DNA of 59,208 nucleotides, counting the filler, from Basidiobolus ranarum (taxonomy: Eukaryota): the NCBI GenBank assembly GCA_040143965.1. It is 5 parts of 5 records of this genome, joined end to end, with 100 filler letters (N's around TTAATTAATTAA, not from the genome) between each part and the next. Parts side by side here need not be neighbours in the genome. Positions count along the whole stretch, not along the records: positions 23,784 to 35,544 come from JASJQH010007465.1; 4 more parts are not named here. The stretch is one strand, 5' to 3'. The translations under genes were made by a program, and so were the position numbers. The notes under the pieces were generated by a model. That model was not told the origin of the DNA. It ran no database searches and saw only the letters and a list, made by a program, of their open reading frames with translations. Below are positions 8,418 to 58,520 of the stretch, piece by piece (the stretch's first letter is position 1; each line of letters begins with the position of its first letter).

Positions 8418-9536
8418 TTATGACAAACTAGGACACCCTTTGATAAGATGACGGTGAAGTCCATCCTTTCGAGAAAAACTTTTGTTACATGACTCACAAC
8501 TGAATGGCCGTTCTCCATTATGTACGGTTGCCAAGTGACGACTAAGATCGTGCTTTCGACCAAATGCCTTGGTACACAGAGTACAACAAAAAGGTCTGGC
8601 TAGTTTAGGGTCGTGCCCGCGTGAATGAACGTTCAAGTTAAATTTCCGTGCAAACTGCAGACCACAAACGTTACAGGCGTACTTCTTTTCTTTTGGTGCC
8701 ACTGGTCGAGAGGAAGGAAGTGAATTTGGTTTCGATGGATTTGGTGTAGATTTCTTTTCATCTTCATGTTGTGGCTGGGCATCCGATTGCTTATTGTACG
8801 ATGCCACTTCCTCTAACGGTGCAATAAAAACCGGCGGACGAGTATCACAAGGTTCATCATCAACGTGAAATGATCCATCTTTACAATAAAGTGAAAAATC
8901 AAACGATTTCTGCTTGGTGAGAGGTACATTTTGAACATGTTGGGGAGCTGTATTGAAATTTCCTTTTTCGAAATCGATATGCGGCGTTAGAAACGGTGTG
9001 GATTGAGCAGGACTAGAATCAAATTGTTCTGCTTGACCAACATATGGTGTAGGCATAAAATCTAGAACTGGATATACCGGAGTATATGGACTGATAAGAG
9101 AAGTATCAGTCGAAAAATCCGATTGATATGGTGTATATGGTGTGGCAAATGAGGACATGAAGTCAAAATCAACCTCATTACTGCCTTTCGGATTTGTCCG
9201 AGAGATTAAAGGAATGTTGGTCATTTGAGGTGTTTGATTTATAGAAGGGAAAATGTGTTCAATATTTTGAGAAGGTGTTTCAGAAATAGAAGGAAGCTCA
9301 GTGCTTTTTTGCAAGTTCACCTTGGGGACTTCAATATCATGATCAAACAACGTAAAGTCAGTGCTAATGCTAGGGTAGAATTGATCTATATTGTCGGAAT
9401 TCGTGGTGTCAGTGTTTCGTAGAGAGTTGTTCGTAAGTTGTTGTTGCATATTACACAAATTATTTGCAAAGTTTTCGCCATCATAGAGCGTAAAATCCGA
9501 ACCGAAAGGTTGATTTTGATCTTGCGTTGGCACCAT
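8418..9536 (-). CDS. C2H2 zinc-finger transcription factor with three C-terminal fingers (Crz1-like recognition helices)
   Basis: Single-exon 372-aa ORF. Fingers CNVC..H..H, CTLC..H...H and CESC..H....C with an HNGERPF linker. Acidic/Pro/Ser/Thr-rich N-terminal region. Confidence 0.9.
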   Translation of the reverse strand: MVPTQDQNQPFGSDFTLYDGENFANNLCNMQQQLTNNSLRNTDTTNSDNIDQFYPSISTDFTLFDHDIEVPKVNLQKSTELPSISETPSQNIEHIFPSINQTPQMTNIPLISRTNPKGSNEVDFDFMSSFATPYTPYQSDFSTDTSLISPYTPVYPVLDFMPTPYVGQAEQFDSSPAQSTPFLTPHIDFEKGNFNTAPQHVQNVPLTKQKSFDFSLYCKDGSFHVDDEPCDTRPPVFIAPLEEVASYNKQSDAQPQHEDEKKSTPNPSKPNSLPSSRPVAPKEKKYACNVCGLQFARKFNLNVHSRGHDPKLARPFCCTLCTKAFGRKHDLSRHLATVHNGERPFSCESCNKSFSRKDGLHRHLIKGCPSLS

Positions 9537-10335
9537 TGTAAGTGCAGTGGTGGAAAATGAGTGACAAATAGAAGCTTTGGGAATCGTTTCAGTTATAAAT
9601 GTGCCCTTGAAATAATGTCTTCGTCAAGAAGGAAAGACAAGAAATGAGAAAATTGGGGAAAAGTAAGGAAGAAGACTATTTTAAAGGATTTTGATGGCTG
9701 GCTAGCTTAATAATCATTATTATAATGGAAATTTACCAATATATGCAATCTACCCAAATAGCCTAAATACTGTTAAATCATGATCTGTCACATCTATTCC
9801 TCAACGAATAGTAACAAATAGAAAGCGTTGATAAATTTAATAGAATAGAATAAGCTGAATAGAATGGAATAATGCAGAATATGCTATGAAACAACATGTA
9901 ACAAATCTATCGAAATTGAGACGTTGTTGTATTGACTTTCCCATATTCTACACTATATATTAGACGTTTTTGTCGCCTCAAGATACGCTGTATACATATA
10001 TATATCTGCTTACTATATTGTATTTGATTACAAAGCTTACTTTGATTGAAAACATGGAACAATCTACAACACTTCCTCGGAAAAACCGGCTATCCTACCG
10101 TGGTCATGTGAACCCAACTTTATTATGAATCAGGAAACATGGAGCGGAAGGATCAGCAAACAGATGCACAAAACGGTAATCTGTTGCGGAATGTTTCTGC
10201 CAATACAATTGTTATAATTACCTGGAGAGATTGCATAACTTACTTAGAATGTTTTAATCAACATTTCTACGGTAATTAACTAGCAAATGGGTGGAAAATG
10301 GAAATGGTTGGGTTCATCGTAGAAAGAAAAAAATT

Positions 10336-11810: not shown

Positions 11811-11910
11811 NNNNNNNNNNNNNNNNNNNNNNNNNNNNNNNNNNNNNNNNNNNNTTAATTAATTAANNNNNNNNNNNNNNNNNNNNNNNNNNNNNNNNNN
11901 NNNNNNNNNN
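11811..11910. other. Artificial contig spacer
   Basis: N44-TTAATTAATTAA-N44, which places stops in all six frames. Confidence 0.97.
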
Positions 11911-23683: not shown

Positions 23684-23783
23684 NNNNNNNNNNNNNNNNN
23701 NNNNNNNNNNNNNNNNNNNNNNNNNNNTTAATTAATTAANNNNNNNNNNNNNNNNNNNNNNNNNNNNNNNNNNNNNNNNNNNN
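23684..23783. other. Artificial contig spacer
   Basis: N44-TTAATTAATTAA-N44. Confidence 0.97.
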
Positions 23784-25691
23784 AGGATTATGTATATAGT
23801 ACATTCCCAGTCTTTGTTTCCCAACAAAGACACTAATACCAAGCTGGTTGACGAGTGGTAGTGCGCTGTCCGCAAAGGGAAGTGTGGGATGTGTTCGTTT
23901 AGTTCTTCGGAACTTCTGAACCCTCTCAGTTGATGATCTTGCCGGTCGATTATTCCAACGACCAGGCGAGGACGGTTTGCACATTCTGACAGCTTATCTT
24001 TTTCTCTCAATTTCATCAAACATCAATACAAAATTGTTAGTTAATAATAACTATCTACGACTATGATTGGCTAGTGCTTAGAAACCTATTTAATAACAAC
24101 TTATTTGGTGTTTGAGTAGTAAGTTCAAAGAAGCAGTGGTGAACATCATAAGTGTCAACTGGCTAAAGTAATGGCAGAAAAGTATCCCTATGTTTCTTTA
24201 TGATTCTATGACAGTCCATATACGTATGGTTATGTTATTGAAGTAGAAAATAGGCACTTGTCTAATGGAGAAGCGAGTGATAAACAATAAAATGGATATG
24301 ACGCTATCACTACAGTTGTATAAGAGTACACTTATCGATGATGAACTGAAAATCGTTGGGGATATATACACTCCATTCCATGTACCGATTTATTAAAAGG
24401 TTTCCTTTCTTTACCAACATGTGTTACTTGGGGTATGCGCTGTTTGTCTACTACACTGGATAACTTACAGAAAACTAACTGCTACTTAAGAAAAGTGTTG
24501 AAGCAATATCAAAAGTGGACAGTATCTGATGCTCATGTTAGTTTCAAAAACGTTACTAGTTTCAACTTGAAGATGGTAGCTACTGGGTTAACTCTATGCT
24601 TCAAATCAATATCAGCGAAACAGAGAAGTAAAATAAGTAACACTAATGATAACATAGATTTGCCCGTTTTTTTTAGTTACTTATTTAGTTACGAATGTGG
24701 AGATAGAAGTGAACCCTCTTTGTCGATCATTGTATGAAAGTTTATTATTGATCTCTTAATAATATCCTAATCTTTCATTGGTGAATTTACATTTCTCCTT
24801 CGATCATATCTTTTTCCATCTACACAGCTTAGTAAAGATCATTTTCAACTTTACGGCTATCCTCCATATTAGCTGCCTGGGCTACTTTTACTACTTTAGT
24901 GAATTTGACAGTCTTAATCGACGATGTGCCGTTAGAGTTTTACTGAGGTTTCCGAGGTGATGTGAAGATTTGGTAACAAATATTTTAGACAGTATTTTAC
25001 GAAGAGTTTCTAGCCAGTAATTTCAGTTTGTATCGGATACTTTCCATGGGCGTATGCTAATTTCAAAACTAGAAATCTATTCGAAAATAGAAACTAAAAT
25101 AAAGAAGGATTACTCTTTCTCATTGGTAATTGCATTACTTTTTCTTTCCTAAATCGTACACACATTAGTACTTAAGTGAATATGATTGGTTATTAATTAA
25201 AAAACTGTCACATTCGTTCAACTAACGTTTTAAGTAGAACTAAGGGGTATATGTTGGCGCTTGTATGTTGACATCTACAGGAATGGTTACATTATATATC
25301 ATCAATTAAAAAAGCGAGGATGTAGATCCAGATCAGGCCAATTAGTGCAATTTGCTAGCTTGTTTAGATTCACAGCTTTCTATTTTGCGGGCGAAGAGTT
25401 ATTCTTTTTCGTTACTTGGGAATTAAACACTTGAGTCCCACATATACAGAATAGTGACCAAATCGCTCCTAAATTTCTTTTATTAGGCACTTTTTGAGTA
25501 GCCCCATCTAGACCAAACGCTTCAATCGACTTTGGAATGTATCCTTTTGTGGAAAAGTAAGCAGTATGTGTAAAGTCCCATTCACTTCATGATATATTTA
25601 GGAATTTTGCGGCGATGAAAGCGTCTCCATAGGAAACCTTAGATGTATGTAATGATGGCTAGTTAGTTATAAAAGACCCAAAGCAAGCATC

Positions 25692-26159
25692 ATGACATAT
25701 CAATTCAAAATGCACTTTCTAACATTCCTTTTTATCTCTGCTACATTGGCTCACGAAATCGTTGGTCAGTATGTATTTTATGGAAATTACATCCATTCCG
25801 TGAACATTACAACTTTGGAGTACATCACTGATGGTGTCATCGTGGTGGATGCTGCAGGAAAAATTACTCAGGTGGAGAAGAGCTCGTCTGAGTCGGAGGC
25901 CAAACTCATTGCTCACAACCACGGAGTAAATCTAACTCAGTTAGATAACCACAAGTTTATCATGCCGGGATTGATTGATACTCATATTCATGCTCCTCAA
26001 TATGTTTTCACCGGTTCTGGTATGGACTTGCAATTACTTGAATGGCTCGAAAACTACACTTTTCCACGTGAAGCACAGTTTAATAACACCAAATATGCCA
26101 CAATGGCATATAATTTGGCAGTCGGTGCGAAGTGCTTGTACTGCCGACTCTGGATCTAA
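25692..26159 (+). pseudogene. 5' fragment of a guanine deaminase (amidohydrolase) with a signal-peptide-like leader; remainder missing
   Basis: FIMPGLIDTHIHAPQY and LLEWLENYTFPRE are guanine deaminase motifs. Similarity stops at ~26122, before the expected GTTT motif. No downstream exons were found before the neighbouring MFS gene. Confidence 0.8.
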
Positions 26160-27291
26160 AGAATGCCAAGGTAGATTAAGTGCGCTGTCCTTCTCCATGG
26201 CCATTTGATGTGTTTATCTTTGAATAATCATCAAGGTTTCAATGCTCTTTTATATTACCATAGATCTGAAATTTGGAAATTACTAAGTAAGAATTGGAAG
26301 TGGACAAACCACTTTCACCATGCTAAATGTATCTGCGGACACCAATGCCAAATAGAGATAGTAGGCGATCGATATCCCACCACGTGATCATGCGGATCCA
26401 ATAGCAATATGAAAGACTATTCCAAGGCGGCTGGAAACCGATGATAGAGTGTAACATGGAACTCATTGGATCAACTAGGGATAAGTTAAAAAGCATTATA
26501 CGTACCTGAGTCACACTGAGATCACATATACTTTTGATTTGGTTAGGATATCCGGGCCCCAATCGGATTGTATAGCTCAAGGAGCAAAACTGCGTATGAA
26601 ATATCCAATTATATTATCAGTGAAATAAGCCAGTTAATTTTATCTTATGGTCGTATACAAGAATCTGTGTAGTAAGGGGAGTGAGCTACATATGTATTTT
26701 TCCATAATCATAATAATTGAACTACCATTTGGTGAATCATCCCTAAGATGCTATACTAGTTACTTTGCAGTCAATCAAATTCACGCTACAATTGATGGCT
26801 TACCAACATCAGAGCACAACGTTTACCTAATGTTCTGCATGAAGTAACCATTACTTGATTTTCTTAAACTGACCTACTAAGCCAGATGTTTTTACCCCAC
26901 GTGTAACTATAGCTCTCCTATCTTCCCCAGGGTGGTATCAGTATTAGTCTTCATTGTGTACAGTCCAATCCACTGTCCAATTTCGCTGAACGTATTATTG
27001 CAGTAGCCAAAAAACTGTGAAGAATGGCGACAACCTCTTTGCACGTATCCTAGTTCCGAATGGAAAGATAGCTGTAGAGAGCCTTAACCTTGTAACACAA
27101 ATCAATGATAGCTATTCAAGGGTATTCTCTATAGAAGGAACTAAGCAAGAATTAAAGAGTACCAAAGTTACTTTTTTTCCTAAGTATATGTTTACATACT
27201 TCTAGTCAGAATGTTATTTAAGAAGAGTACGTATGATTCATGTAAGGCAGCCATTTCATGTAAAACTTTAACAAAAAATAGGGTATTTTAT

Positions 27292-28990
27292 TTAGCTAAT
27301 TACAGGATTTCTTCTAGGTTTAGCGATGATAAATGGAATCAACAGTGCATTCACAATTGCAAAAATCAATAGAGTGAATAGGAATCCGATTCTATCATAA
27401 GCAATGCCACCAATAATTGGTCCGATGAACATTCCTTTAAAATGAAATGATTTAGTAAATCTTACTACACTGAAGATTCTAAAGTTCTCTACTTACCGCC
27501 ACTAAATGCCATGTTAAAAAGACCGAATGCTTGAGCAAAAGCGCCCCCACCAAGCTTACGGATATAATCACCAAGCTCCGGCTGAACTGGGGTCATGACC
27601 TAAAATCTAGTTTAAAGGCCTGGTCATTTTTACCAACAAATAAGTCACAGGAAACTTACCATGGATTGACTAGCACCACATAACATCATCACAATGACGA
27701 GTGACCAAGCGGCCTTTGGAACAGCGAGAAAAGTTATGATCGCTGAGAAGGCGGTCAAACCAATGCTACATATAAACATGCGTCCAAAGCGATCACTCAG
27801 CCATCCAGAAATCGGGGCAATGAATACATTGGGAACCACCAACGCGATGAATAACAAGCCGATGGTACCAGTGCTGTATCCAAACTCTTCGCCAAGGTAG
27901 ATCGTAAGTGTAGGCTCAACACCTAATAATAAATATCTTTAGAATGAGATCGTTCATGGTGGAGGTAATTAGGTTTCAGATAAGTACATGCGTAAGCCGA
28001 GGAAGATAGTAGTGTAATTAGGAAGCATTTGATAATAGGCCAATGCTTCAACATTGTAAGCATGTTCAAAGGTTTTTGTTCTGCCATTGCGTTATCCACA
28101 TTTTCAGTATCTGCTTCTGGCGTCTTCTCTGTACTATCTTGAAGTTCTCTAGTAGCCTCCTCTATAGCATTTGACATCTCTCTCATTTGAGCATCACTGG
28201 GTGCGATGCATAGTCGTACCAAAAAATCGAAAAAGCAAAGCACTGAGCATAAAATAAATGGAGAAGAATCACTAGAATTTTCAAAAAGAAGTCCACCAAT
28301 GGTTGGCCCAATAGCAAAGCCAATTCCGTGACCACCCATAGCGGTTCCTACAGCGACACCGAATTGATGAGGAGGGAAAGCGTCGGCTAACATCGCTACA
28401 CCGATGACCCAAGAAGCCGCTGCTGAAATTCCTTGGATGATACGTATGATCAAAAATTGCCAAAAAGTGTTTGCCAGCGGGAAAAGAGCGCAGGCGATAC
28501 ATAGACATAGCAGACTGATAAGCATGGGAAGCTTTCGCTTTTTATAGCGATCGCTAAGAAGTGCAAATATCGGAGTTGCACCTAGCAAACCAGCAGCTAT
28601 TCTGGAGGTTATTGAGAAGTCCATGTAGAATTACATATTCAGAAGACATACCAAAAGAGCCCATAAGAAGGCCAACAGTAGTAGAATCCCCATGAAGTTT
28701 CTTTTCAACAATTGAAGGTAGAATAGGAACCTGTAAACAAATTTTAACCGATAGTGTGAGCATTGAAGTGACTCGTATACAACATAATAGAGCTCCACTT
28801 ACCACAATACCGTATATAAGCATATCACTTTAAGAGATGAAAACATAGGTTAATCATTTGGAAAGAGCAAGAGGAAGTCTAGCAATGATACGTACGTAAA
28901 TATAGCCAAAGTAACCACGATTAAGACAGCTGTCCTAGACTCACGAAAGGCTTTAAACCGATCTATAATCCCATTTTTTTCGGTAGACAT
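27292..28990 (-). CDS. MFS transporter (DHA1/vesicular amine transporter-like), multi-exon
   Basis: TDMLIYGIVV-PILP, motif A (LSDRYKKRKLPM; GWLSDRFGR), RIIQGISAA, GPTIGGLL, final GPIIGG. About 12 hydrophobic segments and GT-AG introns. Confidence 0.9.
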
Positions 28991-29516
28991 GGAGAATATG
29001 CAAGTATCGAAGAGCTCGGTGCTTAAGAAGATAATAATAAAATAAATAATCCGAAGGGCATTGAAGAGTATTTATCTTTTGTCTTTGGGAGATAGGATTA
29101 GCTCAGAAGCTAGAGAAATTTACTTTATCCACAATAATTTACGAGAAAGGAAATTAGAAGATTTTCTCGATGATTCTTTCTCAACAATGCTACTACTTAG
29201 TATCATCTGAGGACATACATCCAACTATTTACAAATGGGTGAAGACAATATAGCTTCTTTAGGGATTGCTGCAAAATAAAGTGTGAATATCGTCCGCGAA
29301 AGATTATAATTGTCCGCCATATTAGAATATTCCAACTACGTCAACCACAATGAAAATCATCATCTGATTGTCAACAATAATACCAAATCTGGGATAACGT
29401 AAATCTGAGACAACGCCTAACTTGAACTTAAAATTTTCGTCCACATGCAGTCAGATAAAATGACCCTTGTACACCTCATTAGAGTTGAATCCATAGGCAT
29501 AAGCCACACTTTGAAG

Positions 29517-29558
29517 TTAGGGTTAGGGTTACAATTACGGTTAGCAAGATTAGGGTTA
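29517..29558 (+). repeat. Short degenerate TTAGGG (telomere-like/telobox) cluster
   Basis: ttagggttagggtta...ttacggttag...ttagggtta. Confidence 0.5.
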
Positions 29559-29619
29559 TGAAAATAGATTTATTTAATATCTACATCGAAGAGACTAGTA
29601 CCCAGCCAATGAAGTTTGA

Positions 29620-31344
29620 CTATTCCATCATATGATGATGAACATTTTCTCCAAAAAATAAATAGTGTAGCTGAGGAGTGACAATCAGAGCTTCTTCGTT
29701 ACTACTAGCAACAGATATATGCTGGGTGCGTCTCTTCAATTTCCTCGGACTCTTCGTATTATCCCTAAAGTCCCAAGAATCAAGCAATTCCCCAGACTCA
29801 CAAGAAATAAACTGAAGTTGGCATAACTGTTTGTTCATCACGGAGAGCGTAGGTTTAAGATTCGGGAATTTCGTGATGTGATACTTGGAGTATTTCGACA
29901 GTGCGTCGATGGAAGTATATCTGGTGTAACTGCCAGAGCTTCGGGTTAAATTCAAGAACACAAATTGGGAATGAGTTCGAATCGCAATAACTATCAAGTT
30001 TCGTGGGTTGAATGAAAATATTTGATTTTCATCATAATGTCTCCAATCATTAGACTCAGTCCAGAGTCTAACTGTGAATCGCGTACGCCAATCAATTTGC
30101 ATTTTCGGAATTCGATGATTTTCTCCACAAGAGTCGCACTTGATTTCAACGCAATTACTTGAATCTATTCCAACTTTTAGGCAATAGATTCCACTGTTTG
30201 TAGATGCTACTAATGGGTCAAGGGGGTGTACAAGCCAAGTTATAATAGCACAAGAATCTTCAATGTAACCACTCTGTCGGTCTGGCTGCTTTTGCCAGGT
30301 TACATTTGGGAATTCAAATTCATTCCAATGGCCCTTGGTAACTTGTAAATTTAAGTCAATGTTAAGTAGATGTGTTACGTGCCGCTTAGTACCGGCTTCA
30401 CCATGATGCATAAAAAAGTGCGCTTGGCCTGAAGTAAGCACCATGACTATAGGTAATCGAGGATGGAGGAAAACCTCATCAATCGCGTAAGTCTCTGTAG
30501 GCATCTTATTAACCTTTTCACCAAAATTTTCCTCGAATATTCCATTCATCTCTGGCTCGATAGTGAAGGTCACTGGAGTGTATATTTTCTCTCTTATATC
30601 GATGATAACACATTCAGGAGTAAGCTCAGAAGTCTTTTCCAATACCAATATGGGTTCTCTAAACCTTAAAAACCCCTTTTTAAGTTGTAGCGAGTTGACG
30701 TGTATATCATAGGATGAGTTTGTCTTGAAATTGAGGATATTTATGATGCGCTCTGTAGAAGATGACTCTTCATTCTCTAAAGATCGAATATCCGTAAGTA
30801 GCCACTGGCCATGCGCTATGAGGAAACAGATCTCTTCTGTTAATTGTGATAGTTGAATTAAACGGTCTGAGCCATCTTTCAAAGAATGAATGGTCAATTG
30901 AGTAGAAGAGTACGGTATCGTTCCAAGTAGGTTGGGATTCTCTCTTATAAGATGTACCTTAGCTTGAGAAGGTTTTTTGAATTTCTGGACTTGAAATTTT
31001 CTTTTAAGCCAAAAGTAAGATAACTGTGCACGCGCTCGGAATAACCAAAACCACTCGGATACTTGAGGAGTTACAGAATTGGTAGTAACACCTGAGTGTT
31101 TGTGGAATATCTTGTGTTTCACTTTAGTTTCCGTTTCTGAGATGAATTTACGACATTTCGCTCGCTCATAAGCGTCTAGCTCGATACTAAAGCATTGTAA
31201 CCATTGACGATGCCAGAATGCGTCATTGCAAAGGAGATAACCAAATAAACTTTTATTTGTTTTTAGTAACTTTTGAAAAGTTTGAGAAACGTCATTTACC
31301 TCGTTCAGTATGTAGAAAAAGACTTCACTAGGTAACTGTTCCAT
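29620..31344 (-). CDS. F-box-like protein with unrecognised beta-rich C-terminal region
   Basis: Intronless 574-aa ORF. The N-terminus MEQLPSEVFFYILNEV...TNKSL...NDAFWH matches the F-box pattern (LP.E....I, later D..W). Confidence 0.65.
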   Translation of the reverse strand: MEQLPSEVFFYILNEVNDVSQTFQKLLKTNKSLFGYLLCNDAFWHRQWLQCFSIELDAYERAKCRKFISETETKVKHKIFHKHSGVTTNSVTPQVSEWFWLFRARAQLSYFWLKRKFQVQKFKKPSQAKVHLIRENPNLLGTIPYSSTQLTIHSLKDGSDRLIQLSQLTEEICFLIAHGQWLLTDIRSLENEESSSTERIINILNFKTNSSYDIHVNSLQLKKGFLRFREPILVLEKTSELTPECVIIDIREKIYTPVTFTIEPEMNGIFEENFGEKVNKMPTETYAIDEVFLHPRLPIVMVLTSGQAHFFMHHGEAGTKRHVTHLLNIDLNLQVTKGHWNEFEFPNVTWQKQPDRQSGYIEDSCAIITWLVHPLDPLVASTNSGIYCLKVGIDSSNCVEIKCDSCGENHRIPKMQIDWRTRFTVRLWTESNDWRHYDENQIFSFNPRNLIVIAIRTHSQFVFLNLTRSSGSYTRYTSIDALSKYSKYHITKFPNLKPTLSVMNKQLCQLQFISCESGELLDSWDFRDNTKSPRKLKRRTQHISVASSNEEALIVTPQLHYLFFGENVHHHMME

Positions 31345-32231
31345 TGAATATTAACAGTGGCGACGTGTTCGTTCTCCTTAAATTTGATTTACATTACATA
31401 AAATATATTGAAAATCAGCCCAACTGATTTATATACAATTAAGAGTGGATATTTCTTTAACTTATCTAAGCTACAGAAAACAATGATTGTGTTTATAAAC
31501 AAATAAACATACACCAGTAGCACGAACTTTACAATCGGATCTGAATGTTCTGAAAGTGCGGTCCTTTCTATATTTGTATCAATAGATGTTCTTTTGGGAC
31601 TAGATCCTTGGAACCACTAGAAATATAATGTTGCAAGAAGTTTGTTCACTTATCCGGAAACAGCCAACAGGTCCCCAGTTCCAATAGGATCCGATGATGT
31701 TTCTTATTTAGTATCGGCAGAGACCAAATCCAGTCAGTTGTTTATTGCGCTATGCTTGGTCTAAATGATTGACTGCAACACATTTGAACAGTTTATTTGA
31801 CATAATATAATCTATATAATTTACAATACCCTCGCGGGAATAAAGTACGAATATATGTTACAGTAACTGTGAGAATATATACAACATCTAACTGGGCAAT
31901 AAATAAATATTTCTTGCCAAATTAATCATTTTTTTAAGTTTATTCCAAATACAGTGTGCTATAGTGAAATCATGACGTAAATATGCCAGTAATAACATAG
32001 ATAGCGGCGCATCTACCAAAATTTAAGGATTAGACGAATTGAAGGAGTTGCGTTGTAAAAAAGGTTTGCAATGGTACTTCAGCCGAAAGCTTATATATAG
32101 GCATGGAATCAGCTTGGGAATCAAGCATCACACATTCTCGTGGCATCTTCTTGAGTGTAAGTAGAGCAATTTACAGCGTATACATAGGGCCATCAGTATA
32201 TTTACTCACATTTTTGATTCCTAGTGTTCCA

Positions 32232-35200
32232 ATGAAGACTTCTTTTTCATCACCGATGTATACACTGGCTATACTGTGTATATGTATCTCTAGTATCTCA
32301 GCCGTTCCTTTCAACACGAGTAAGTTCTGTAATTCTATCAAGTCTTCTTGCAAATATCACTCACAAAAATATCATTGTTGGCAGTTAATGACTTTGGTGC
32401 TGATAAACAACAATGTAAATTACACACAAAGTACAACATGGAATGTCCCACACTTTGCGTCTCAGATATCAGGTTATGCCCACATGATTTAACTCCAAGC
32501 TGTCCTGCTGGTCAGGTATTTTGTGGAGATGGTGACTGTCGCGAGTCATGCCAAGGAATCAAGAGTATATGTAGTTGTGATGGATCCTCCTCTAACCTTG
32601 TACCCTGCCAAGGTAAAAAGAGAGTCAATATCCCTCAATTCGATCCTAAAAACTCCGATAAGCAAATATCAAATACTTGCTCATCATCCGTCGGTTTCTC
32701 AAACATCCCAGTATGGTCCAAGGAGCTATCTTCTGAAAGTGCGTGGTTGATTTGTCCACCCAAAACCCAAACTGGAAGCTTCACCTGGTCCGAGCCCATG
32801 TGGATTACAGTTTTCTCCATTGTTGGAGCCGAGTTTTTAATTCTGTGTTCTTGGGCAATATACAAACGTTTTTTGGAAAGGAACGCGACCGACATCTCTC
32901 GCGCCGAGACCGTTATTAATCGTATTGAAGAAAAAAAACAAGATAAGGAGAAAGATTATGACCAAGAACAGGATCAAGAGGATGTCGATGATTTCACCCT
33001 TACTGGTTACAGAAATGATTATTTGGGTAGCTTTGCATTTGGTTCCGTGATTTTTATGGGTTTGGCGTGGTTGGTATGGTTGGGAGTTATTACCGCTGAC
33101 TACTACGGTGCCATTAGTGGGGTAGCCTTGGATATGTTCTATGGCGATGGTGCTCTCTCTATGTGGGTGTATGTTGCTGCCTGGTACTTGGCAGCTGCTT
33201 GGTTACTTGGGATGAATGCTACTCGCGCTAGAATGAGAAATTTCTTTCGTATCAAATCCGATGCTACCCATTGTCAATTTGTTCAAATCGAGAAGCCTCT
33301 AACTACCACAATTCTATTGAGCGACAATAGCAGATTGTTAGGCTTAGTAACTTCCATAGAAAACAAACTCAAATCTGCTTTTAGTTGGGATTTTCATGTG
33401 ACAACCTCTGTAGTAAAGATGACAACACTTGGCCGTCGCTACTTCGAATTCCAATGCACACGTTATGTGTATGATGAGCATCTCGCTATTTACAAGCCCT
33501 TTGACGTGGAGATCGGTGATAGAAACTCCGAATTAGTCAGACTTAGCATGGGCTTAAACAATGAGACAGTCTTGCATCGTCGTGAATTGATAGGAGAGAA
33601 TTTCATTCAAGTTGATGTTCCTTCATTCCCTATTGCTCTATTGCAAGAATTCGCTTCTCTCTTCTACCTGTATCAGATTATGATTCTATGGCTTTTCTAC
33701 TACTTCAGCTACTATTACATTGGTCTCGTTGATACTTGTGTTATTCTCATTTCTGCCTTGATCAGGGTGTTTACCAGATTGAACTCTGAACATCGTGTAA
33801 AGAGAATGGCTGAGCATCAGAGTGAATGCATTATTCTTCGTGATAATCAATGGAAGAGTTTGTCTACCTCAGACCTTGTACCTGGTGATGTCTTTGAAGT
33901 TAAGAAAGGAATCACCGTCCCATGTGATGCCGTCGTACTCGGAGGAAACATCGTAGCAGATGAGAGTTCTTTGACTGGAGAGCCTCTTCCCATTCGTAAG
34001 TTTCCCCTCAAAGATGATGATTTGGAGTATGACCCACTCGGTTCTGGTAAAATCAGCACTCTATATGCAGGGACGATAATCTCTCAGGCTAGTTTGACAG
34101 GTGATATGAGGGGAGATAAAGTTACAGCACTTGTTACACGTACAGGTACCTCTACCGACAAAGGTCAACTCGTTCGTCGCATTCTTTTTCCGAATCCAAT
34201 CGCATTTATCTTTGACATGCAACTCAAGATTGTTATGCTAGTACTTCTAATTTGGGGTCTTCTGTGTTTCGTTGCTTCTATTTGGCTTGGTGGCAAGGGA
34301 GGTATTGCCTCTTGGTTCTATGGTATGTTCGCTATCTCACAGATCATTAGTCCTTTATTACCTGCAGCTCTTGTTGTTGGACAAACAGTAGCGGCCAAAC
34401 GTCTTCGGGATAAACAAATATTCTGTGTTGATCTTCCCAGAATCATCATTGCTGGTAAAATTCAAATGTTCTGCTTCGATAAAACTGGTACTTTGACAAA
34501 GGAGGGTTTAGAATTCTATGGTGTTCAACCAGTTGATGGCTACGAACAAAGAATTGGACAGGATCTATCTCAAACCACCTTTGGGTTCGGACCACACACT
34601 GAAAACTTTGTTGATATCACCAGTTTATTTAAGGTTGGTCTTGCCACATGTCACTCCGTCACTCAGGTGGAGGATCAATTGATTGGTAATCCGGTAGATA
34701 TCGAGATGTTCCGCTCTACCAGATGGCAACTCCAGGACCAGCCTGAACACGGATTTGTTGATTCGCTGAGATCATCTGATGGCCCCAATGGTCAACTCAT
34801 TCATGTTGTCAAACGTTTCGAATTCATCCACGCTAGAGCCTCAATGTCAGTCGCAGTTCTGGACCCTGTCACACAGCATGTTCACATATTTGTTAAAGGA
34901 TCATTTGAGAAGGTCAAAGAGCTATCAAATCCGAACTCTGTTCCAGCTGACTATGATTTGATGGCCAATAAACTTGCCATGGAAGGCTGCTATGTTTTAG
35001 CCATGGCTCACTGTGACTTGGGCAAAATCGACCCAACCACTGTTCGTTCACTGAGTCGTGAACAATTAGAGTCAAACATCGACTTTATGGGACTTGTTCT
35101 TTTCAAGAATATGCTCAAACCAGATACCAAGGAAGCTATTGAGGAGCTCAAAGCTGGTGATACTCGTACTCTCATGATTACTGGAGATACCGCTTTGACA

Positions 35201-35544
35201 GGCATTTATATTGCACGTGCCTGTGGAATGCTTCCATCCGATAATCAAGTTCTACTTGGTGATGTCGATCGTAACGGAGCCGTTGTCTGGACGGATGTTG
35301 ACTCTGGAGAAGTTTCTGATGTAGAGAAAGCCCTTGAACATAAGCATACTCATCCTGTAGAATTGGCAGTTACAGCAAAAGCCTTCAATGTCCTTTGTGA
35401 TATGGATCAAATAAGAAATCTACTGTTGGATATTCGAGTTTTCGCTCGTATGAAACCTCACGACAAGGTCGAGTGCGTTCAATTACACATGGAGCGTGGT
35501 GTTACTGCTATGTGTGGTGATGGTGGTAATGACTGTGGAGCTCT
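32232..35544 (+). CDS. P5-type P-type ATPase with signal peptide and Cys-rich N-terminal domain; 3' end cut by the contig end
   Basis: Exon 1 32232-32319, intron 32320-32384 (gtaagt...gcag), then a long exon with LVPGD, PCD, DESSLTGE, LYAGT, FCFDKTGTLT, GNPVD, RFEF, VKGS, MITGD, VFARMKP.DK and MCGDGGNDCGA. Confidence 0.93.
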
Positions 35545-35644
35545 NNNNNNNNNNNNNNNNNNNNNNNNNNNNNNNNNNNNNNNNNNNNTTAATTAATTAA
35601 NNNNNNNNNNNNNNNNNNNNNNNNNNNNNNNNNNNNNNNNNNNN
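35545..35644. other. Artificial contig spacer
   Basis: N44-TTAATTAATTAA-N44. Confidence 0.97.
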
Positions 35645-39997: not shown

Positions 39998-41200
39998 TCA
40001 CCAGTTGGATCCTCGTACCTTCTCCGATTCTAAACGTGTGTAGAGTAAATAAAGGGCCATCTGGTTACATTCTGGTGGACCTGTAATGGTGACCAAACGT
40101 TCATTGGAGTCATTCTGTGGCTCCCCGATTTTGATATGTGAACCGGACATTTGTCTTATTTCGTTGATCTTGGAACCACCCTTGCCAATGATACATCCAA
40201 CCATGTCGTTAGGAATAAATATTTGCTGTGATTGAGTTTCGTGACTAGGAGAGCCATGTGCCCCATGATGAACTGGGACTGACCTATCATGACGCATGGG
40301 TGGTATGCCTAAAGGTGGGTATGCGGGAGGTGCCCCGTAGAATTGAGGTGGAGCAGGCCCACCCATATACGCCATCCGTAACTGAGGTTTGTAAGGAATA
40401 CAATCGGATGAACGATCCATATGATCTTGAAGAATTTGGCAAACATGATAAATTGCAATCTGTATGGCATCCGCAACTCCATTAATGGTAAGGATACGCT
40501 CTGTGGAATGAGGTAGCATTTCTTCAGAAGCATTTAATTTGGCTCCAGAAGCCTCCTGAATCTCCTTAATCTTTGAGCCACTTTTGCCAATCAGATATCC
40601 CATGCGTTTGTGAGGAATCAAGAGTCTGATAGTAGCCCCCTTAAGTGTTTTAGTCGTATCCTCCTCAACATCTTCGGTTAACCTCTGAGCAACTAAAGAA
40701 TAGGCCTATATTGAAACTGTTTAGTTGGCGTTCCGCCTACACTTTTAAAATGAACTATACCTTAGCGGTTGTATCAACCAAGCCGGTTATTGTTAAAATT
40801 CTCTCGTTTACTCCTTGAATCTGTTCAGAAATAGTAACTTTTGTTCCTGAGCGCTCTCTGATCTCTTTAACACTTTGACCACCTCTACCGATAATGACAC
40901 CTGCTTCTTTGGCGAATACTAGAGAGCGCAAAGACATACCTGTCGAGGAAGTGGTACTGGAATTTTCCTCATCTTGACTTCTGCGACAAATATCAAATTT
41001 CCATTAGTAATTATGTTCATAGGACTTTATCACGCTGTCTAATCTTCATACTTGACTTGCTCGTCGGAGTGTTTATCCGCGTCTACGTCGTCAAGAGTGG
41101 GCTTTCTTGACTTGGAAGCTTTCTTATCAGAGTCGAAATTCTGTATATCGTCCGCGTGTTGACGCTTCCGATCTGTAGGGGATTCGTGACCGTTTTCCAT
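39998..41200 (-). CDS. Triple-KH-domain RNA-binding protein (PCBP/hnRNP K; Pbp2/Hek2/Rnc1-like), 3 exons
   Basis: Three GxxG loops (IIGRGG, LIGKSG, IIGKGG), MLPHSTER, QQIFIPNDMVGCIIG, NQMALYLLYTRLESEK. Confidence 0.93.
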
Positions 41201-43123: not shown

Positions 43124-44698
43124 TTAATAGTAATCTACACTTGAGCTCATATATGCTCCAGCCACTCTTGCTAATCCATTTCCATCGGGGTTGGCAACAC
43201 TAGCCTTATTGGCTCTTGCCTCAATTTCGCCCACAGGAATTCCAGTTCTCAAGGACTCTTCCATTATAGGAATGAAAGCACATGTAGGGAACGCTTTATC
43301 GCAAGGATATATTTGATGATCTGGGCGCTTGTCATCTTCATATGCTGATTTGTACGATTTGCCAATCTCTTTACAACGCTCTACTGAGCTTTGAAGTTGA
43401 GACAAACAAACCGGGGAAATATAGCCTTGGTCGTTTAACCCATTTACGTACTCAGCATTAATACTCTCTAATTCACGAACCTCTGTGACATTCAAAAACA
43501 TCATACCTGCCCATTCTGAAGATAATCCGAACGGAATACGTAGATTTTTTTGGTGATCTCGATCATTCAGATCAGGTCCACCGAACTTCTCTTGATAGGA
43601 AAGTGGTTTGAAAGGGTTGGAAGCTACCTTTCCTACATCAGCTGCAGCCCCACTCCAATCTTGTGGACGTGTGAAGTCTACCTGACGGAGTTCATCCGAA
43701 GGTGAATTTGAGTAGATAGAGCAGAGGCCGGGTCCACTGTGATCAAACATGGCGCGGACTGGAACACCAAATGGAACCATCATGTCAGTGTCTCTAGCTT
43801 GAGTGCCTCCAATTGTATTAGTTCCACTATAATCACGATAGTTTTGAGGGGCATTAGCTTGCCATAAAGCCCAGTTCTTGTCCACGAAACCGTGATGTAG
43901 ATAGAAGACTGGACTATTAAACGAGGTGAGTATTCATTTGTTACATGTATAATACGCATTTAACATACTCATTTGGACTGAAAAAGTTGACCATTTCCCC
44001 GTTGATTGCTTGATGCATCACACCATGCGGTCCTTCCTCAAAACGAGCACAAAATGGCCCGTAATTTTCGTAACTCTCTCGTACAAATTTTATAGATTCT
44101 GGCGACCACAAAGCCAGAATACGACCTTTCTCACCATTAAAATTCCTGGTTAAACAATGAGGTAAAGGTACTGTCAATGTCCAGTTTGCAAATGGCCCAT
44201 CTTCTATACAATTATCTGGACCCTTTCCATTACCGCCGATAATTTTGAAAATAAAGCTTTGCTCTGGAGCCTGTGAGTCCAGTGACCAATCCTAAGTAAT
44301 TTGAGAGGAATGTTAAAGACCTTCATAGCTTGGCAATTGTAAAATAGATACTTTACCCAATATGGGATCACTACTTCGGGAGCAACTGATTGTAGTGCAT
44401 ACTCGTATAATCGTATGAAATACCTATGCCAAGGGAAGAACGCAGGTGTACCGTGAGCAAAGGGTACGTACGAATTGTGAATATCTGAGAATCGATCATA
44501 TATCTCCAAAGTTTTAAGTTGCTGTATGGCACTGAGCCAACCTTCTATTTCTTGGGGACTCATTTGGCGTATTTCTTTGCGTACAGAAATTGTGCGGCAT
44601 TTTCCAGGTATCTCACCATACAGTTGTCCAGAGGATTCTTGGCCTTGGACTAATACAGCCGCTGATAATGATAACAAAAATAGTGCCTTTATAAGCAT
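43124..44698 (-). CDS. Secreted tyrosinase / type-3 di-copper oxidase, 3 exons
   Basis: Signal peptide, VRKEIRQM, CuA H...AHGTPAFFPWHR, IPYW|DW, CuB EGPHGVMH...SPND|PVFYLHHGFVDKNWALWQ, LCSIY. Confidence 0.93.
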
Positions 44699-47386: not shown

Positions 47387-47486
47387 NNNNNNNNNNNNNN
47401 NNNNNNNNNNNNNNNNNNNNNNNNNNNNNNTTAATTAATTAANNNNNNNNNNNNNNNNNNNNNNNNNNNNNNNNNNNNNNNNNNNN
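47387..47486. other. Artificial contig spacer
   Basis: N44-TTAATTAATTAA-N44. Confidence 0.97.
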
Positions 47487-55720: not shown

Positions 55721-57238
55721 TCAAGGTTGGATACTCTGCGGATTCTGAAAAACATTCATTGGGTCGTATTTTCGTTTAATGTCGATGAGGCGCTTCACAT
55801 TATTACCAAAATAGGATTGCAAGGGATTTTGAAGTTCAAGAGATACATAACCTTGATATGAACCTCCATTAGAATATGGCCAGAGAAGATTGAACATGTT
55901 TTTGCTCCACGTATGGGCAATCTCGTCAACTAAGGGTGCACCCGTGATGTATATGCCAAATTCTATTTGAAATAAAATTCCCTGTCTATGTGGATAAGGT
56001 GTCATTGACGTCGACTGCGTTGCAAATATGCCACCAAACGCTTCGATATTTACATAGGTGATGCTAGGGGCAATCGTTAACTGTTGATTAAACTGGGCCA
56101 AGATATGGTCGGGTAGTTCTTGAGTAAAAAATAAGCTTCTAGCATAGGATTTTTCATTTTCCGTGATGTCTTTGTAAACTAGAGTAGAAAAAGATGCATG
56201 ATCTTGACAAGAATCGTCGAAATTGAAGAACATTTTAGCACCAAGAGCAGAGCACGATTTTGTGTATAAGACGGGGACACCAATATCCAACAATCCACTC
56301 TCCTTCAATACCTCATCAAGTTGTTCCATGGTCCCCAAAAAATGCCCATAAATACGAAGAAACACAGGAAGGTGCTGAAGGTACATGGTGAGCTTCTCTG
56401 TTGTTTTGGGTGCCCAGCGCAGCCATCGTTTTAGTACTTCTACTGTATCTAAGGGCGTCCAGGTGATATGAAACATGCTAATCAAAGGTGTTCTTACAAG
56501 TTGTAGAGTATAAGAAAGAACTAGACCAAATGTTCCTCCTCCTCCTCCCCTTAACGCCCAAAATAAATCAGGATGTTGATTTTCACTTGCTTGAATAATT
56601 TCACCATGATGATTTACGACTGTCGCAGATTGAATATAAACCGCAGATATACCAAATTTTCTTGCCACTGGTCCATATCCACCAGAACTCACAAGTCCTC
56701 CCAAGCCAACCGTAGGGCAAGTTCCTGCTGGAAACGTTAGTTCTGGATTAAACTTGTGGATTGCTAAATATAGATCTCCCAGGGCGATACCAGCTTGAAC
56801 TATAGCTGTATTTCCACGAGCGGCAACAAGTTTGTTCATATTTGAAATATCTATAACGAGAGTGCCAGTAGTGGTCGAAAAAGACTCAAAGCTGTGGCCC
56901 CCACTACGGGGTGTTACCACCACCTTTGCGGAAACTGCACACTTGACAAGCTTCTGTACTTGATCGTCTGACCGAGCATAAGCAACGGCTATCGGTGTAT
57001 TAATTACTCTAGTTCTCTTTCCCAATCTTGCCGTGTTGTAGCGCAATATATCACTAGGAAGAACAACATCAGCTTTGGTTTGCATTAAGCAGAGGGTAAA
57101 AGTCTCATTTTCCCTACTAGCAGGCACAATAGTGTCGAGGGGTAGAGGCGGTAAACTCAGCTGACTGAATACGCTTGTAATAGAGCATGCGAAAGTAAAG
57201 AGCAATGTAAAATTAGATGAAGAACATGTAGGTTTCAT
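55721..57238 (-). CDS. Secreted FAD-linked oxidase, berberine bridge enzyme-like (VAO/PCMH, AA7-like)
   Basis: Intronless 505 aa with a signal peptide. RSGGHSFE and AGTCPTVGLGG provide the His and Cys for bicovalent FAD. PDLFWALRGGGGGTFG. BBE tail YFGNNVKRLIDIKRKYDPMNVFQNPQSI. Confidence 0.93.
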   Translation of the reverse strand: MKPTCSSSNFTLLFTFACSITSVFSQLSLPPLPLDTIVPASRENETFTLCLMQTKADVVLPSDILRYNTARLGKRTRVINTPIAVAYARSDDQVQKLVKCAVSAKVVVTPRSGGHSFESFSTTTGTLVIDISNMNKLVAARGNTAIVQAGIALGDLYLAIHKFNPELTFPAGTCPTVGLGGLVSSGGYGPVARKFGISAVYIQSATVVNHHGEIIQASENQHPDLFWALRGGGGGTFGLVLSYTLQLVRTPLISMFHITWTPLDTVEVLKRWLRWAPKTTEKLTMYLQHLPVFLRIYGHFLGTMEQLDEVLKESGLLDIGVPVLYTKSCSALGAKMFFNFDDSCQDHASFSTLVYKDITENEKSYARSLFFTQELPDHILAQFNQQLTIAPSITYVNIEAFGGIFATQSTSMTPYPHRQGILFQIEFGIYITGAPLVDEIAHTWSKNMFNLLWPYSNGGSYQGYVSLELQNPLQSYFGNNVKRLIDIKRKYDPMNVFQNPQSIQP

Positions 57239-58520
57239 TTTTGTAATGGAACCAAATTCTATAGGCGCTTCAAGAGATTGCTCGAATATTTAATAAAAAA
57301 TTAATACTGAAATATTGGGGTATATTCTCCTGAGGTAAATGCGGGAGCAACTAGCAACTGATAACGGAGGTACGACGGGGATGACATTGTTCTGCTCCTT
57401 GACATGCATGAATGTAAGTGCACTGATGCAAAAAGGAGTACGATTAGGGAGATTGTTTTGATTGCCATACTAGCAAGATATATGCTAACTCACCTCTACT
57501 GACAATTGAATTCTTTGTATTCACGTAGCGTAGCAATCTGTACTAAACCTTGTGTACATTTAGCATTACTCATTGACAAGCCAAAATCAAATTTGTTATA
57601 TTCTGTGATATCTGGGACAATTTCAAATTCTGCTCTTCGTGATCATACCGTACTAAACTGCACAAAATATGTAAAGGTTGATAATGTATAATGGATGACA
57701 TATATCTTTCATAATATACCTAGAATCTAGAATATCTTTTAAATATATATTGCCATAACTTATGACAATATATATTGTATCTTAAAATAAATTCTATACT
57801 TATCTTGTTCTCTATGATATACATATATATTTGCTATATCTAGATTACATCACCTTATGTATACCATAAGTTAGGAGAAGAAAAATATCAGCAGGTACTT
57901 CTCTACAGATAAACAAACTGATGTATACACATTGCAAGTCCGAGCAGTATCTTAGAAAATGGCAGTAGTTGACCATCATTTTCTTTGGTAACAAGGTCAA
58001 TTTTGTTGTTGGAATTTATAAACTCATTTACTGTGTGCAGTAGATACCTGTTTGGCTTTGAGGGGAGGATAAGAACCTAGTGGTGTAGCCTTTATTTAGT
58101 TATATTAGCTATGCTGGAGCATTCATTAACAACATAAATAGCATCGTTAAAACTTCCTAACTATTCCTTCAAAGGTAATACTAATATCAAGCAGTTGCAT
58201 TGTGCCCAGAACATCTGTGGGAGGAAATTACAGGTTCCGCACTGCTAATTTTTGGGTATACAAAAAGTAAATATCTTGTGTTCTCATTTTTGATGAAGCA
58301 AAACTTTCTTAACCGACTTTGATTGGATATATAAAATAGTATATTTGTGAAGTTTGGGATAACTAGTTGGATATGCATTGAAATATTTATTCAGAATGCT
58401 AGTGCTAAATTGCTGCCATAAATGTATGTTTAAAAAAAATTCATTTCAACACACAGGAATTTGATTTAACTTCCGTGGTCAATGAGGTATTTTATCCATA
58501 TCAACCTTCCAACCATTCTA

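Follow-up and report, generated by a model that had tools for sequence, protein, structure and literature searches.

A third-clade P5-type ATPase gene of Basidiobolus ranarum with a predicted signal peptide and a cysteine-rich domain ahead of the pump

The window analysed here is a 59,208-nucleotide stretch of Basidiobolus ranarum DNA (assembly GCA_040143965.1) consisting of five pieces, each of about 11.8 kb, that are linked by N44-TTAATTAATTAA-N44 joints. The third piece (23784-35544, from JASJQH010007465.1) ends within a gene for a P5 (type V) P-type ATPase, hereafter the pump gene, which is interrupted by the contig end and not by a deletion. Its spliced product, 1082 residues to the contig end, begins with a predicted signal peptide, a domain with 13 cysteines, an additional transmembrane helix (TM0) and an acidic linker, and only then enters the P5 pump. 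The features of the locus are as follows.

32092-32099 (+): TATA-like box, a putative promoter element read from the sequence
32232-32319 (+): exon 1, ATG at 32232, 88 nucleotides, 29 codons plus one base; leader and first mature residues
32232-32303 (+): predicted cleavable signal peptide of 24 residues (hydrophobic window), expected to be cut between Ala24 and Val-Pro
32304-32794 (+): Cys-rich domain, putatively luminal or extracellular, mature residues 25-166, split by the intron
32320-32384 (+): intron of 65 nucleotides, GTAAGT to CAG, with a likely branch point CTCAC about 20 nucleotides from the 3' end
32385-35544 (+): exon 2, open through the contig end
32795-32863 (+): TM0, the extra transmembrane helix, residues 167-189, with conserved E-P-M-W before it and K-R after it
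32864-33001 (+): acidic linker, putatively cytosolic, 46 residues with 15 Asp/Glu against 9 Lys/Arg
33023-33100 (+): helix Ma, first helix of a hairpin, residues 243-268; a 28-residue helix in the model of the paralogue P0061
33149-33220 (+): helix Mb, second helix of the hairpin, residues 285-308; a 24-residue helix in the P0061 model, with a conserved N-F-F-R-I motif after it
33221-35544 (+): P5 core to the contig end, with the N-terminal beta domain, M1-M4 and the A, P and N domains
34349-34363 (+): M4 motif S-P-L-L-P, at the position where P5B pumps have PPALP and P5A pumps PP[D/E]LP
34478-34492 (+): DKTGT phosphorylation motif
35516-35533 (+): GDGGND hinge motif; no conserved motif follows it on the contig
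35545-35644 (no strand): artificial joint N44-TTAATTAATTAA-N44 after the pump gene; the sequence downstream is unrelated

Comparison with homologous sequences shows the spliced gene model, with its start and 65-nucleotide intron, to be real. A first-pass annotation of the window had proposed that removal of 32320-32384 places the leader in frame with the Cys-rich part, and this proved correct: the split codon ATT preserves the frame across the intron, and the orthologue P0001 of Basidiobolus meristosporus aligns without a gap over the splice junction. Leader and junction also align with P0001, P0002, P0003, P0005, P0006 and P0008. Read without splicing, the frame of exon 1 terminates at 32492, and the long frame without exon 1 offers its first possible ATG no earlier than residue 48 of the spliced protein. 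An in-frame ATG further upstream, at 32103, is unlikely to lie within the mRNA because it follows the TATA-like box by only 4 nucleotides. The contig lacks the 3' end of the gene, which corresponds to M5-M10 and about 270 codons; the form of this C-terminal part is indicated by a B. ranarum fragment (P0013, 89% identical), and the M5-M10 region is present both in this orthologue fragment and in paralogues.

Two further observations concern gene models. A candidate second intron in the 5' leader runs from a GTAAGT at 32159 to a TAG at 32224, with CTCAC about 20 nucleotides before its end, and ends shortly before the ATG at 32232. The public model of P0001 is without short conserved stretches, one in the P domain and one in the L9-10 loop, the latter gap removing one Cys of a pair that is seen in paralogues and in B. 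ranarum P0013; these gaps are probably mis-called introns.

Leader and helices were called from Kyte-Doolittle windows, AlphaFold2 helices and homology. The resulting N-terminus comprises a hydrophobic leader with a core of about 13-16 residues and a small residue at -1 of the proposed cleavage site, then a domain of about 140 residues whose 13 Cys fall between residues 40 and 153, and finally TM0 with K-R past it. TM0 is helical in both AlphaFold2 models. The linker that follows differs in length among homologues, and its equivalent in the P0061 model is disordered, with a predicted local distance difference test score (pLDDT) below 50. These parts agree with the first-pass annotation, which had described a segment with about 13 Cys, a transmembrane helix, an acidic linker and two further hydrophobic helices: 13 Cys were counted, and across 115 aligned sequences each of them is either invariant or conserved to at least 90%, and the helices and linker are all present and conserved. 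Its remark that the open reading frame (ORF) track misses the leader also holds, exon 1 being short, and some homologue models show the same failure.

The same architecture recurs in at least 118 complete homologues with a Cys-rich N-terminus and the same layout; this set was chosen for a complete Cys-rich N-region. The segment, whose absence from homologues had been named beforehand as refuting the proposal, is thus widely shared. A strongly hydrophobic 10-mer precedes the first conserved Cys in 93/118 homologues, and the remaining 25 are mostly gene models that start within or past the leader. When the N-terminal 345 residues alone were used as the query, 8 matches were returned (from Basidiobolus, Rhizopus, Conidiobolus, Dispira, Coemansia and Linderina), and 8/8 were pumps with the identical order of parts; the homologue searches were all directed at the pump, none at stand-alone copies of the Cys domain. 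A search with the core gave 736 matches at E ≤ 1e-30. Among the best 120 of these, 112/112 organism-named proteins belong to what we take to be Mucoromycota or Zoopagomycota, and several paralogues per genome occur among the core matches, with at least four in B. meristosporus. Short matches of a later exhaustive search (for example P0152, 465 residues) continue into the P5 N-terminal region and resemble truncated models. The gap-free junction in P0001, the 93/118 leaders and the conservation of the 13 Cys together argue that the module is more than chance.

These data bear directly on whether the Cys-rich segment might not be translated with the pump at all, as a result of merged genes or of a downstream start. 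Exon 1 is short enough for ORF callers to overlook, and 25/118 homologue models are without a clear leader. However, a single unbroken frame leads from the Cys-rich part into the pump, over 100 independent gene models, drawn from many genera, show the same fusion, and so do proteins derived from transcriptomes of Amoebidium, Paulinella and Selenidium. We regard such an artefact as extremely improbable.

A separate question is whether the leader is cleaved. It could instead be an uncleaved signal anchor that is kept as an extra N-terminal helix, with the Cys domain still in the lumen; the Ile at -3 would suit this, as would the length of the hydrophobic core, which lies between those typical of signal peptides and signal anchors. 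Against this, homologue leaders show small residues at -1 and -3 immediately ahead of a conserved x-Pro-x-Phe/Trp motif, the usual context of signal peptidase, and the leader sequences themselves are not conserved. Homologue leaders end in the same Ala/x-Pro-x-Phe/Trp context, with cleavage expected after Ala, and retention of the leader is considered very unlikely.

Downstream of the module, the product is a member of the P-type ATPase superfamily, with a DKTGT motif, an A-domain region and GDGxND, and matches PF00122 (E1-E2 ATPase, Pfam; E 4.6e-25) and TIGR01494 (NCBIfam; E 1.4e-50, above its cut-off). Within this superfamily it belongs to P5 (type V): it matches TIGR01657 (type V, NCBIfam; E 7.8e-157) and carries an N-terminal beta domain ahead of M1. 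At 523.6 bits the TIGR01657 match stays short of the curated cut-off of 618.25, in a protein that is cut after the P domain. The best sequence matches in the Protein Data Bank (PDB) are all P5 pumps (ATP13A2 297 bits, a fungal P5B 266, Spf1/ATP13A1 228), and these alignments begin only at residue 350 of the exon 2 translation.

The pump fits neither described P5 type. The accessible text of PMC10654040 gives the reference M4 motifs as PPALP for P5B and PP[D/E]LPxE for P5A. M4 of the pump reads SPLLPAAL and matches neither. In a survey of 125 homologues from the N-region and core searches, M4 has the form xP[LIMV][LIV]P in 121/125, reads SPLLN in three and is absent with its region in one; PPALP or PP[ED]LP was found in 0/125. 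P5B pumps (ATP13A2, Ypk9) provide the best sequence and structure matches of the core and have in common with it the N-terminal beta domain, DKTGT, GDGxND and a proline-kinked M4. The B. ranarum pump differs from them in having SPLLP in place of PPALP, in the lack of a match to PF12409 (Pfam), in a position outside the PPALP rows of both trees described below, in an N-terminal membrane element that is modelled as two long helices, and in its signal peptide, Cys domain, TM0 and linker, which have no counterpart there. In P5A pumps (Spf1, ATP13A1), the Ma/Mb helices likewise precede the beta domain, and the model described next aligns near the N-termini of their chains, whereas the PP[D/E]LPxE motif is absent here, the similarity is lower (228 bits), and the solved P5A structures show neither a luminal N-terminal domain nor a helix ahead of Ma. 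The two helices of 28 and 24 residues that precede the N-terminal domain in the P0061 model are thus a resemblance to P5A in a single feature, not P5A membership.

An AlphaFold2 model of the paralogue P0061 (residues 21-1220, without M9-M10; mean pLDDT 80.9, predicted template modelling score (pTM) 0.68) shows TM0 as a helix (141-179), then a disordered linker (180-194) and a strand (197-203), followed by Ma, Mb and the P5 fold. Structural alignment with VIA-align gave the following.

ATP13A2: Z 29.8, model 197-1200 on chain 35-1066 (start at chain residue 34-35), 861 residues aligned, root-mean-square deviation (rmsd) 6.8
ATP13A1: Z 28.0, model 193-1200 on chain 47-1119
Spf1: Z 27.0, model 193-1200 on chain 9-1121 (start at chain residue 9-10), 913 residues aligned, rmsd 3.7

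The P5A and P5B alignments thus start at model residues 192-197, and 0 of the 50 solved chains listed align before residue 174. Since solved chains align from these later residues, the additions to the pump are limited to leader, Cys domain, TM0 and linker, and Ma/Mb, as modelled, is the normal P5 N-terminal membrane element. The first-pass annotation had counted extra N-terminal transmembrane helices in the plural; of these, TM0 stands as an addition, and the next two do not.

Placement on phylogenetic trees puts the pump gene in a third P5 clade, apart from P5A and P5B. An exhaustive HMMER search returned 19,009 matches at E ≤ 0.001, 1,555 of them at E ≤ 1e-30, and the best 150 representatives plus eleven long proteins from another search were sampled for trees, both of which were rooted on the sole PPELP (P5A-type) row. 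In FastTree (131 rows, 728 columns), 121 rows including the pump gene form one clade with support 99, and the PPALP rows are placed near the root. In IQ-TREE (LG+C20+F+G4 PMSF, quick search; 58 rows, 727 columns), the clade comprises 49 rows, with a stem length of 0.74 and a value of 100 in the Shimodaira-Hasegawa-like approximate likelihood ratio test (SH-aLRT). All PPALP rows, including alligator ATP13A2 (P0286), and the PPELP row fall outside the clade in both trees. The pump gene is sister to P0001 (support 100) within a zygomycete clade (support 100) in IQ-TREE. A distinct P5 subfamily had been suspected from the N-terminal architecture, and the separate lineage in both trees together with the SPLLP motif bears this out.

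Fungal members of the clade are zygomycetes, the blastoclads Coelomomyces and Sorochytrium, and the chytrids Polychytrium, Kappamyces and Irineochytrium; members outside the fungi include the ichthyosporean Amoebidium, Paulinella, the oomycete Globisporangium, Chromera, the gregarine Selenidium and Amoebophrya. One of the chytrid proteins, P0285 of Irineochytrium annulatum (1854 residues), has WD40 and other unrelated Pfam domains in one long protein and is probably a merged gene model. Neither tree contains a Toxoplasma or Plasmodium sequence, and a further search for long proteins returned none.

A third P5 clade was named P5C in 2025 (Nat Commun, PMC12217143) around TgFLP12 (TGGT1_289070) and PF3D7_0504000, and the accessible part of that paper describes the family as absent from animals. 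Because the published distribution matches and alveolates are present in our clade, the two are likely to be one and the same. P5C, as represented by TgFLP12 and Plasmodium ATPase3 (PF3D7_0504000), would then resemble the clade found here in being a third P5 lineage with similar taxa, whereas a signal peptide, a Cys-rich luminal domain or an extra helix is not described for P5C in the accessible text of PMC12217143. The same text proposes that TgFLP12 exports fatty acids from the apicoplast, a role that cannot hold for a fungal pump. For Plasmodium ATPase3, an AlphaFold model with two N-terminal transmembrane helices and a further membrane-crossing helix was judged erroneous by its authors, according to the accessible part of PMC12655044. 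These helices are compatible with TM0 plus Ma/Mb, and they may be real.

The N-terminal module varies within the clade. Among 100 third-clade tree rows with a complete N-region, exactly 13 Cys precede TM0 in 37, at least 12 in 43, and seven in 7. The 13-Cys form is present in fungi, in Amoebidium and in a protist clade that includes Paulinella (M4 PPLLPTVF); the domain core matches the protist-clade protein P0226 at E 1e-7, and Selenidium has the common post-leader motif with marginal overall similarity (E 0.08). In an oomycete type (P0148, which is organism-named, and P0155, P0160, P0167, P0171 and P0179), the leader is followed by a 7-Cys domain of about 180 residues and TM0, with a Cys in the luminal L7-8 loop and without a Cys pair in L9-10; this form may be a domain replacement at the same position. 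Chromera (P0255, P0271) and P0157, P0172, P0178 and P0163 have only about 30 residues before TM0, in which Y-P-x-G-P is followed by two Cys and there is no obvious leader; this may be a minimal form of the same architecture, with the N-terminus outside the cytosol (N-out). Across these sequences, a helix ahead of Ma/Mb is widespread and the luminal part variable.

The Cys domain is without a match to solved folds in the searches made, and a missing match is not proof of a new fold. AlphaFold2 modelled the Cys domain plus TM0 (165 residues, 50-sequence alignment) with a pLDDT of 90.5 and a pTM of 0.72; besides the helix of TM0, the model has a single helix of 15 residues and a few short strands. 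Foldseek against the PDB returned nothing at E ≤ 0.001, the best rows lying at E of about 5-10, VIA-align against 48,161 chains reached a best Z of 2.2, and BFVD gave no match. Pfam at E ≤ 10 returned only a chance-level DUF4199 row over residues 128-227, around TM0 and linker, a PDB sequence search found no meaningful match, and the best ESM Atlas score, 0.75, was to an unnamed cluster.

These results are relevant to the view, close to one raised in the first-pass annotation, that the domain is a substrate-capturing or gating receptor that binds a cargo or regulator on the luminal side and passes it to the entry site at M1-M6. The domain sequence and its 13 Cys are strongly conserved, perhaps beyond the needs of a mere stabiliser, other P5 pumps load their substrate from the luminal side (accessible text of PMC10654040), and the non-significant Foldseek rows include low-density lipoprotein (LDL) receptor class A repeats, which are ligand-binding (E 7-10, 31-35 columns), a weak likeness. 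However, searches with Pfam, Foldseek, VIA-align, BFVD and ESM Atlas linked it significantly to no binding domain, whether by fold or by family, and lineages of the clade swap the domain for an unrelated one or nearly lose it, which fits a structural role better. A receptor function is judged unlikely.

An orientation for the module can be proposed. Because the catalytic domains must be cytosolic and Ma/Mb is a hairpin, the segment before TM0 should be luminal and the linker cytosolic, and this N-out topology fits the leader, the K-R after TM0 and the 13 conserved Cys. A cleavable signal peptide would make the N-terminus luminal or extracellular, and the 13-Cys domain would fold there with disulfides; TM0 would bring the chain back to the cytosol, the disordered acidic linker would come next, and Ma/Mb, the N-terminal beta domain and the pump core would then follow in their normal orientation.

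The beta subunit of Na,K- and H,K-ATPases and the CDC50 proteins of P4-ATPases are separate polypeptides with disulfide-rich ectodomains and have type II single-pass or two-pass topologies. To our knowledge, the textbook P-type ATPase has a cytosolic N-terminus, and its luminal partner, where one is needed, is a separate protein. We propose that the Cys domain and TM0 could act as a comparable module fused in cis, capping the luminal loops of the pump; a built-in beta subunit had also been among the suggestions of the first-pass annotation. Such a cap would be needed for folding, exit from the endoplasmic reticulum (ER) and stability, and might form a luminal vestibule; the substrate would be expected to be organic or lipid-like and to move toward the cytosol, by analogy with other P5 pumps and TgFLP12. 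The comparison is a functional analogy only, between membrane-anchored, disulfide-bonded luminal domains beside a P-type pump. In contrast to the beta subunit and CDC50, the module here is cis-fused at the N-terminus, has a type I orientation and another fold, and no similarity of the Cys domain to either was found by Foldseek or VIA-align. A complex prediction with ESMFold2, pairing the Cys domain and TM0 of P0010 with the M5-M10 of the same protein, scored 0.02 (mark 0.34), in a run in which the custom alignments went unused and the partner folded poorly, and it speaks neither for nor against docking.

Cysteines in the luminal loops are suggestive in this respect. A Cys in L7-8 is present in 40/40 rows with at least 12 ectodomain Cys, in 6/6 oomycete 7-Cys rows and in 1/10 P5A/B rows, and both Cys of the L9-10 pair are present in 38/40, 0/6 and 0/10 of these, respectively. 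The sums are even (13+1+2 = 16; 7+1 in oomycetes). Because the domain count is odd (13) and the total is 16, an inter-domain disulfide between the odd domain Cys and the L7-8 Cys is possible; this pairing is speculative and is a parity argument only.

The loop cysteines also bear on the suggestion that the module is a targeting or quality-control device, serving membrane insertion, an ER checkpoint or sorting, with no lasting contact to the pump. The long, disordered and variable linker between TM0 and the pump would allow the module to sit apart, and some members of the clade retain TM0 with a very short N-terminal stretch. However, a sorting tag requires neither 13 invariant Cys nor a juxtamembrane motif kept across fungi, Amoebidium and the protist clade, and the luminal-loop Cys in 40/40 and 38/40 of the Cys-rich members suggest a structural partnership. 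We consider a role confined to targeting decidedly unlikely.

The reading as a whole, a third-clade P5 pump with an N-out 13-Cys module that acts as a luminal cap in cis, is put forward tentatively, as plausible though not quite probable. Several observations weigh against it. The residue at -3 of the proposed cleavage site is Ile. The ectodomain of P0061 is less confident in the long model, with block pLDDT values of 49-81. The oomycete 7-Cys domain has no detectable similarity to the 13-Cys domain (E 0.4), and with this form and the Chromera type the Cys module is not universal across the third clade. The link between the Cys-rich domain and the L7-8 Cys is tied to phylogeny: of 91 rows, 54 have both features, 23 have neither and 14 are discordant, and with only two changes of the L7-8 Cys along the tree a test on independent pairs is powerless (median p 1). 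Finally, TgFLP12 is described in the accessible text of PMC12217143 as having 12 transmembrane domains and no N-terminal targeting sequence.

A bolder version would hold that signal peptide, luminal Cys domain and TM0 are ancestral to the whole third clade (P5C), that the cap is disulfide-linked to L7-8, that the oomycete and Chromera forms are derived, and that the ATPase3 helix is a real TM0. We regard this as doubtful. Were it to hold, no other P-type ATPases would combine an N-terminus in the lumen with an odd count of membrane helices.

The pump family itself is known and the clade probably named already; the luminal N-terminal architecture is apparently undescribed. Full-text searches turned up no account of a P5 pump with a signal peptide or a Cys-rich luminal N-domain; they do not cover supplements or the older subscription papers on P5 phylogeny (Moller 2008, Sorensen 2010). 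Among the texts searched, the term P5C-ATPase occurs only in PMC12217143, whose accessible part has nothing on an N-terminal module.

On this reading, a widespread branch of P5 pumps would begin outside the cytosol, with a confidently folding 13-Cys domain that lacks known relatives. Genomes of Mucorales, Kickxellomycotina and Entomophthoromycotina each contain several paralogues of this branch, which extends to chytrids, blastoclads, an ichthyosporean, Rhizaria and alveolates. A recently named and barely characterised third P5 clade would gain a testable structural signature, and the architecture suggests why gene and homology models fail at the N-terminus, where a short first exon is overlooked and an extra helix dismissed. 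Mucor, Rhizopus and Phycomyces are tractable fungi in which one could look for the substrate and for what the luminal module does. Since the hosts include opportunistic pathogens and animals lack the family (accessible text of PMC12217143), an exposed domain specific to fungi and parasites may also have practical interest.

Elsewhere in the window, the artificial joints lie at 11811-11910, 23684-23783, 35545-35644 and 47387-47486, and because the window consists of separate pieces, genes that flank a joint are not genomic neighbours. Upstream of the pump gene and divergent from it is an open frame of 576 codons at 29620-31350 (-), for which Pfam gave no match at E ≤ 0.001. Other open frames in the window have ordinary eukaryotic domains, and most resemble single exons of spliced genes:

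27923-28630 (-): MFS transporter fragment
8418-9623 (-): C2H2 zinc-finger protein
39998-40705 (-): KH-domain protein
43124-43933 (-): tyrosinase fragment
55721-57289 (-): FAD/BBE oxidase

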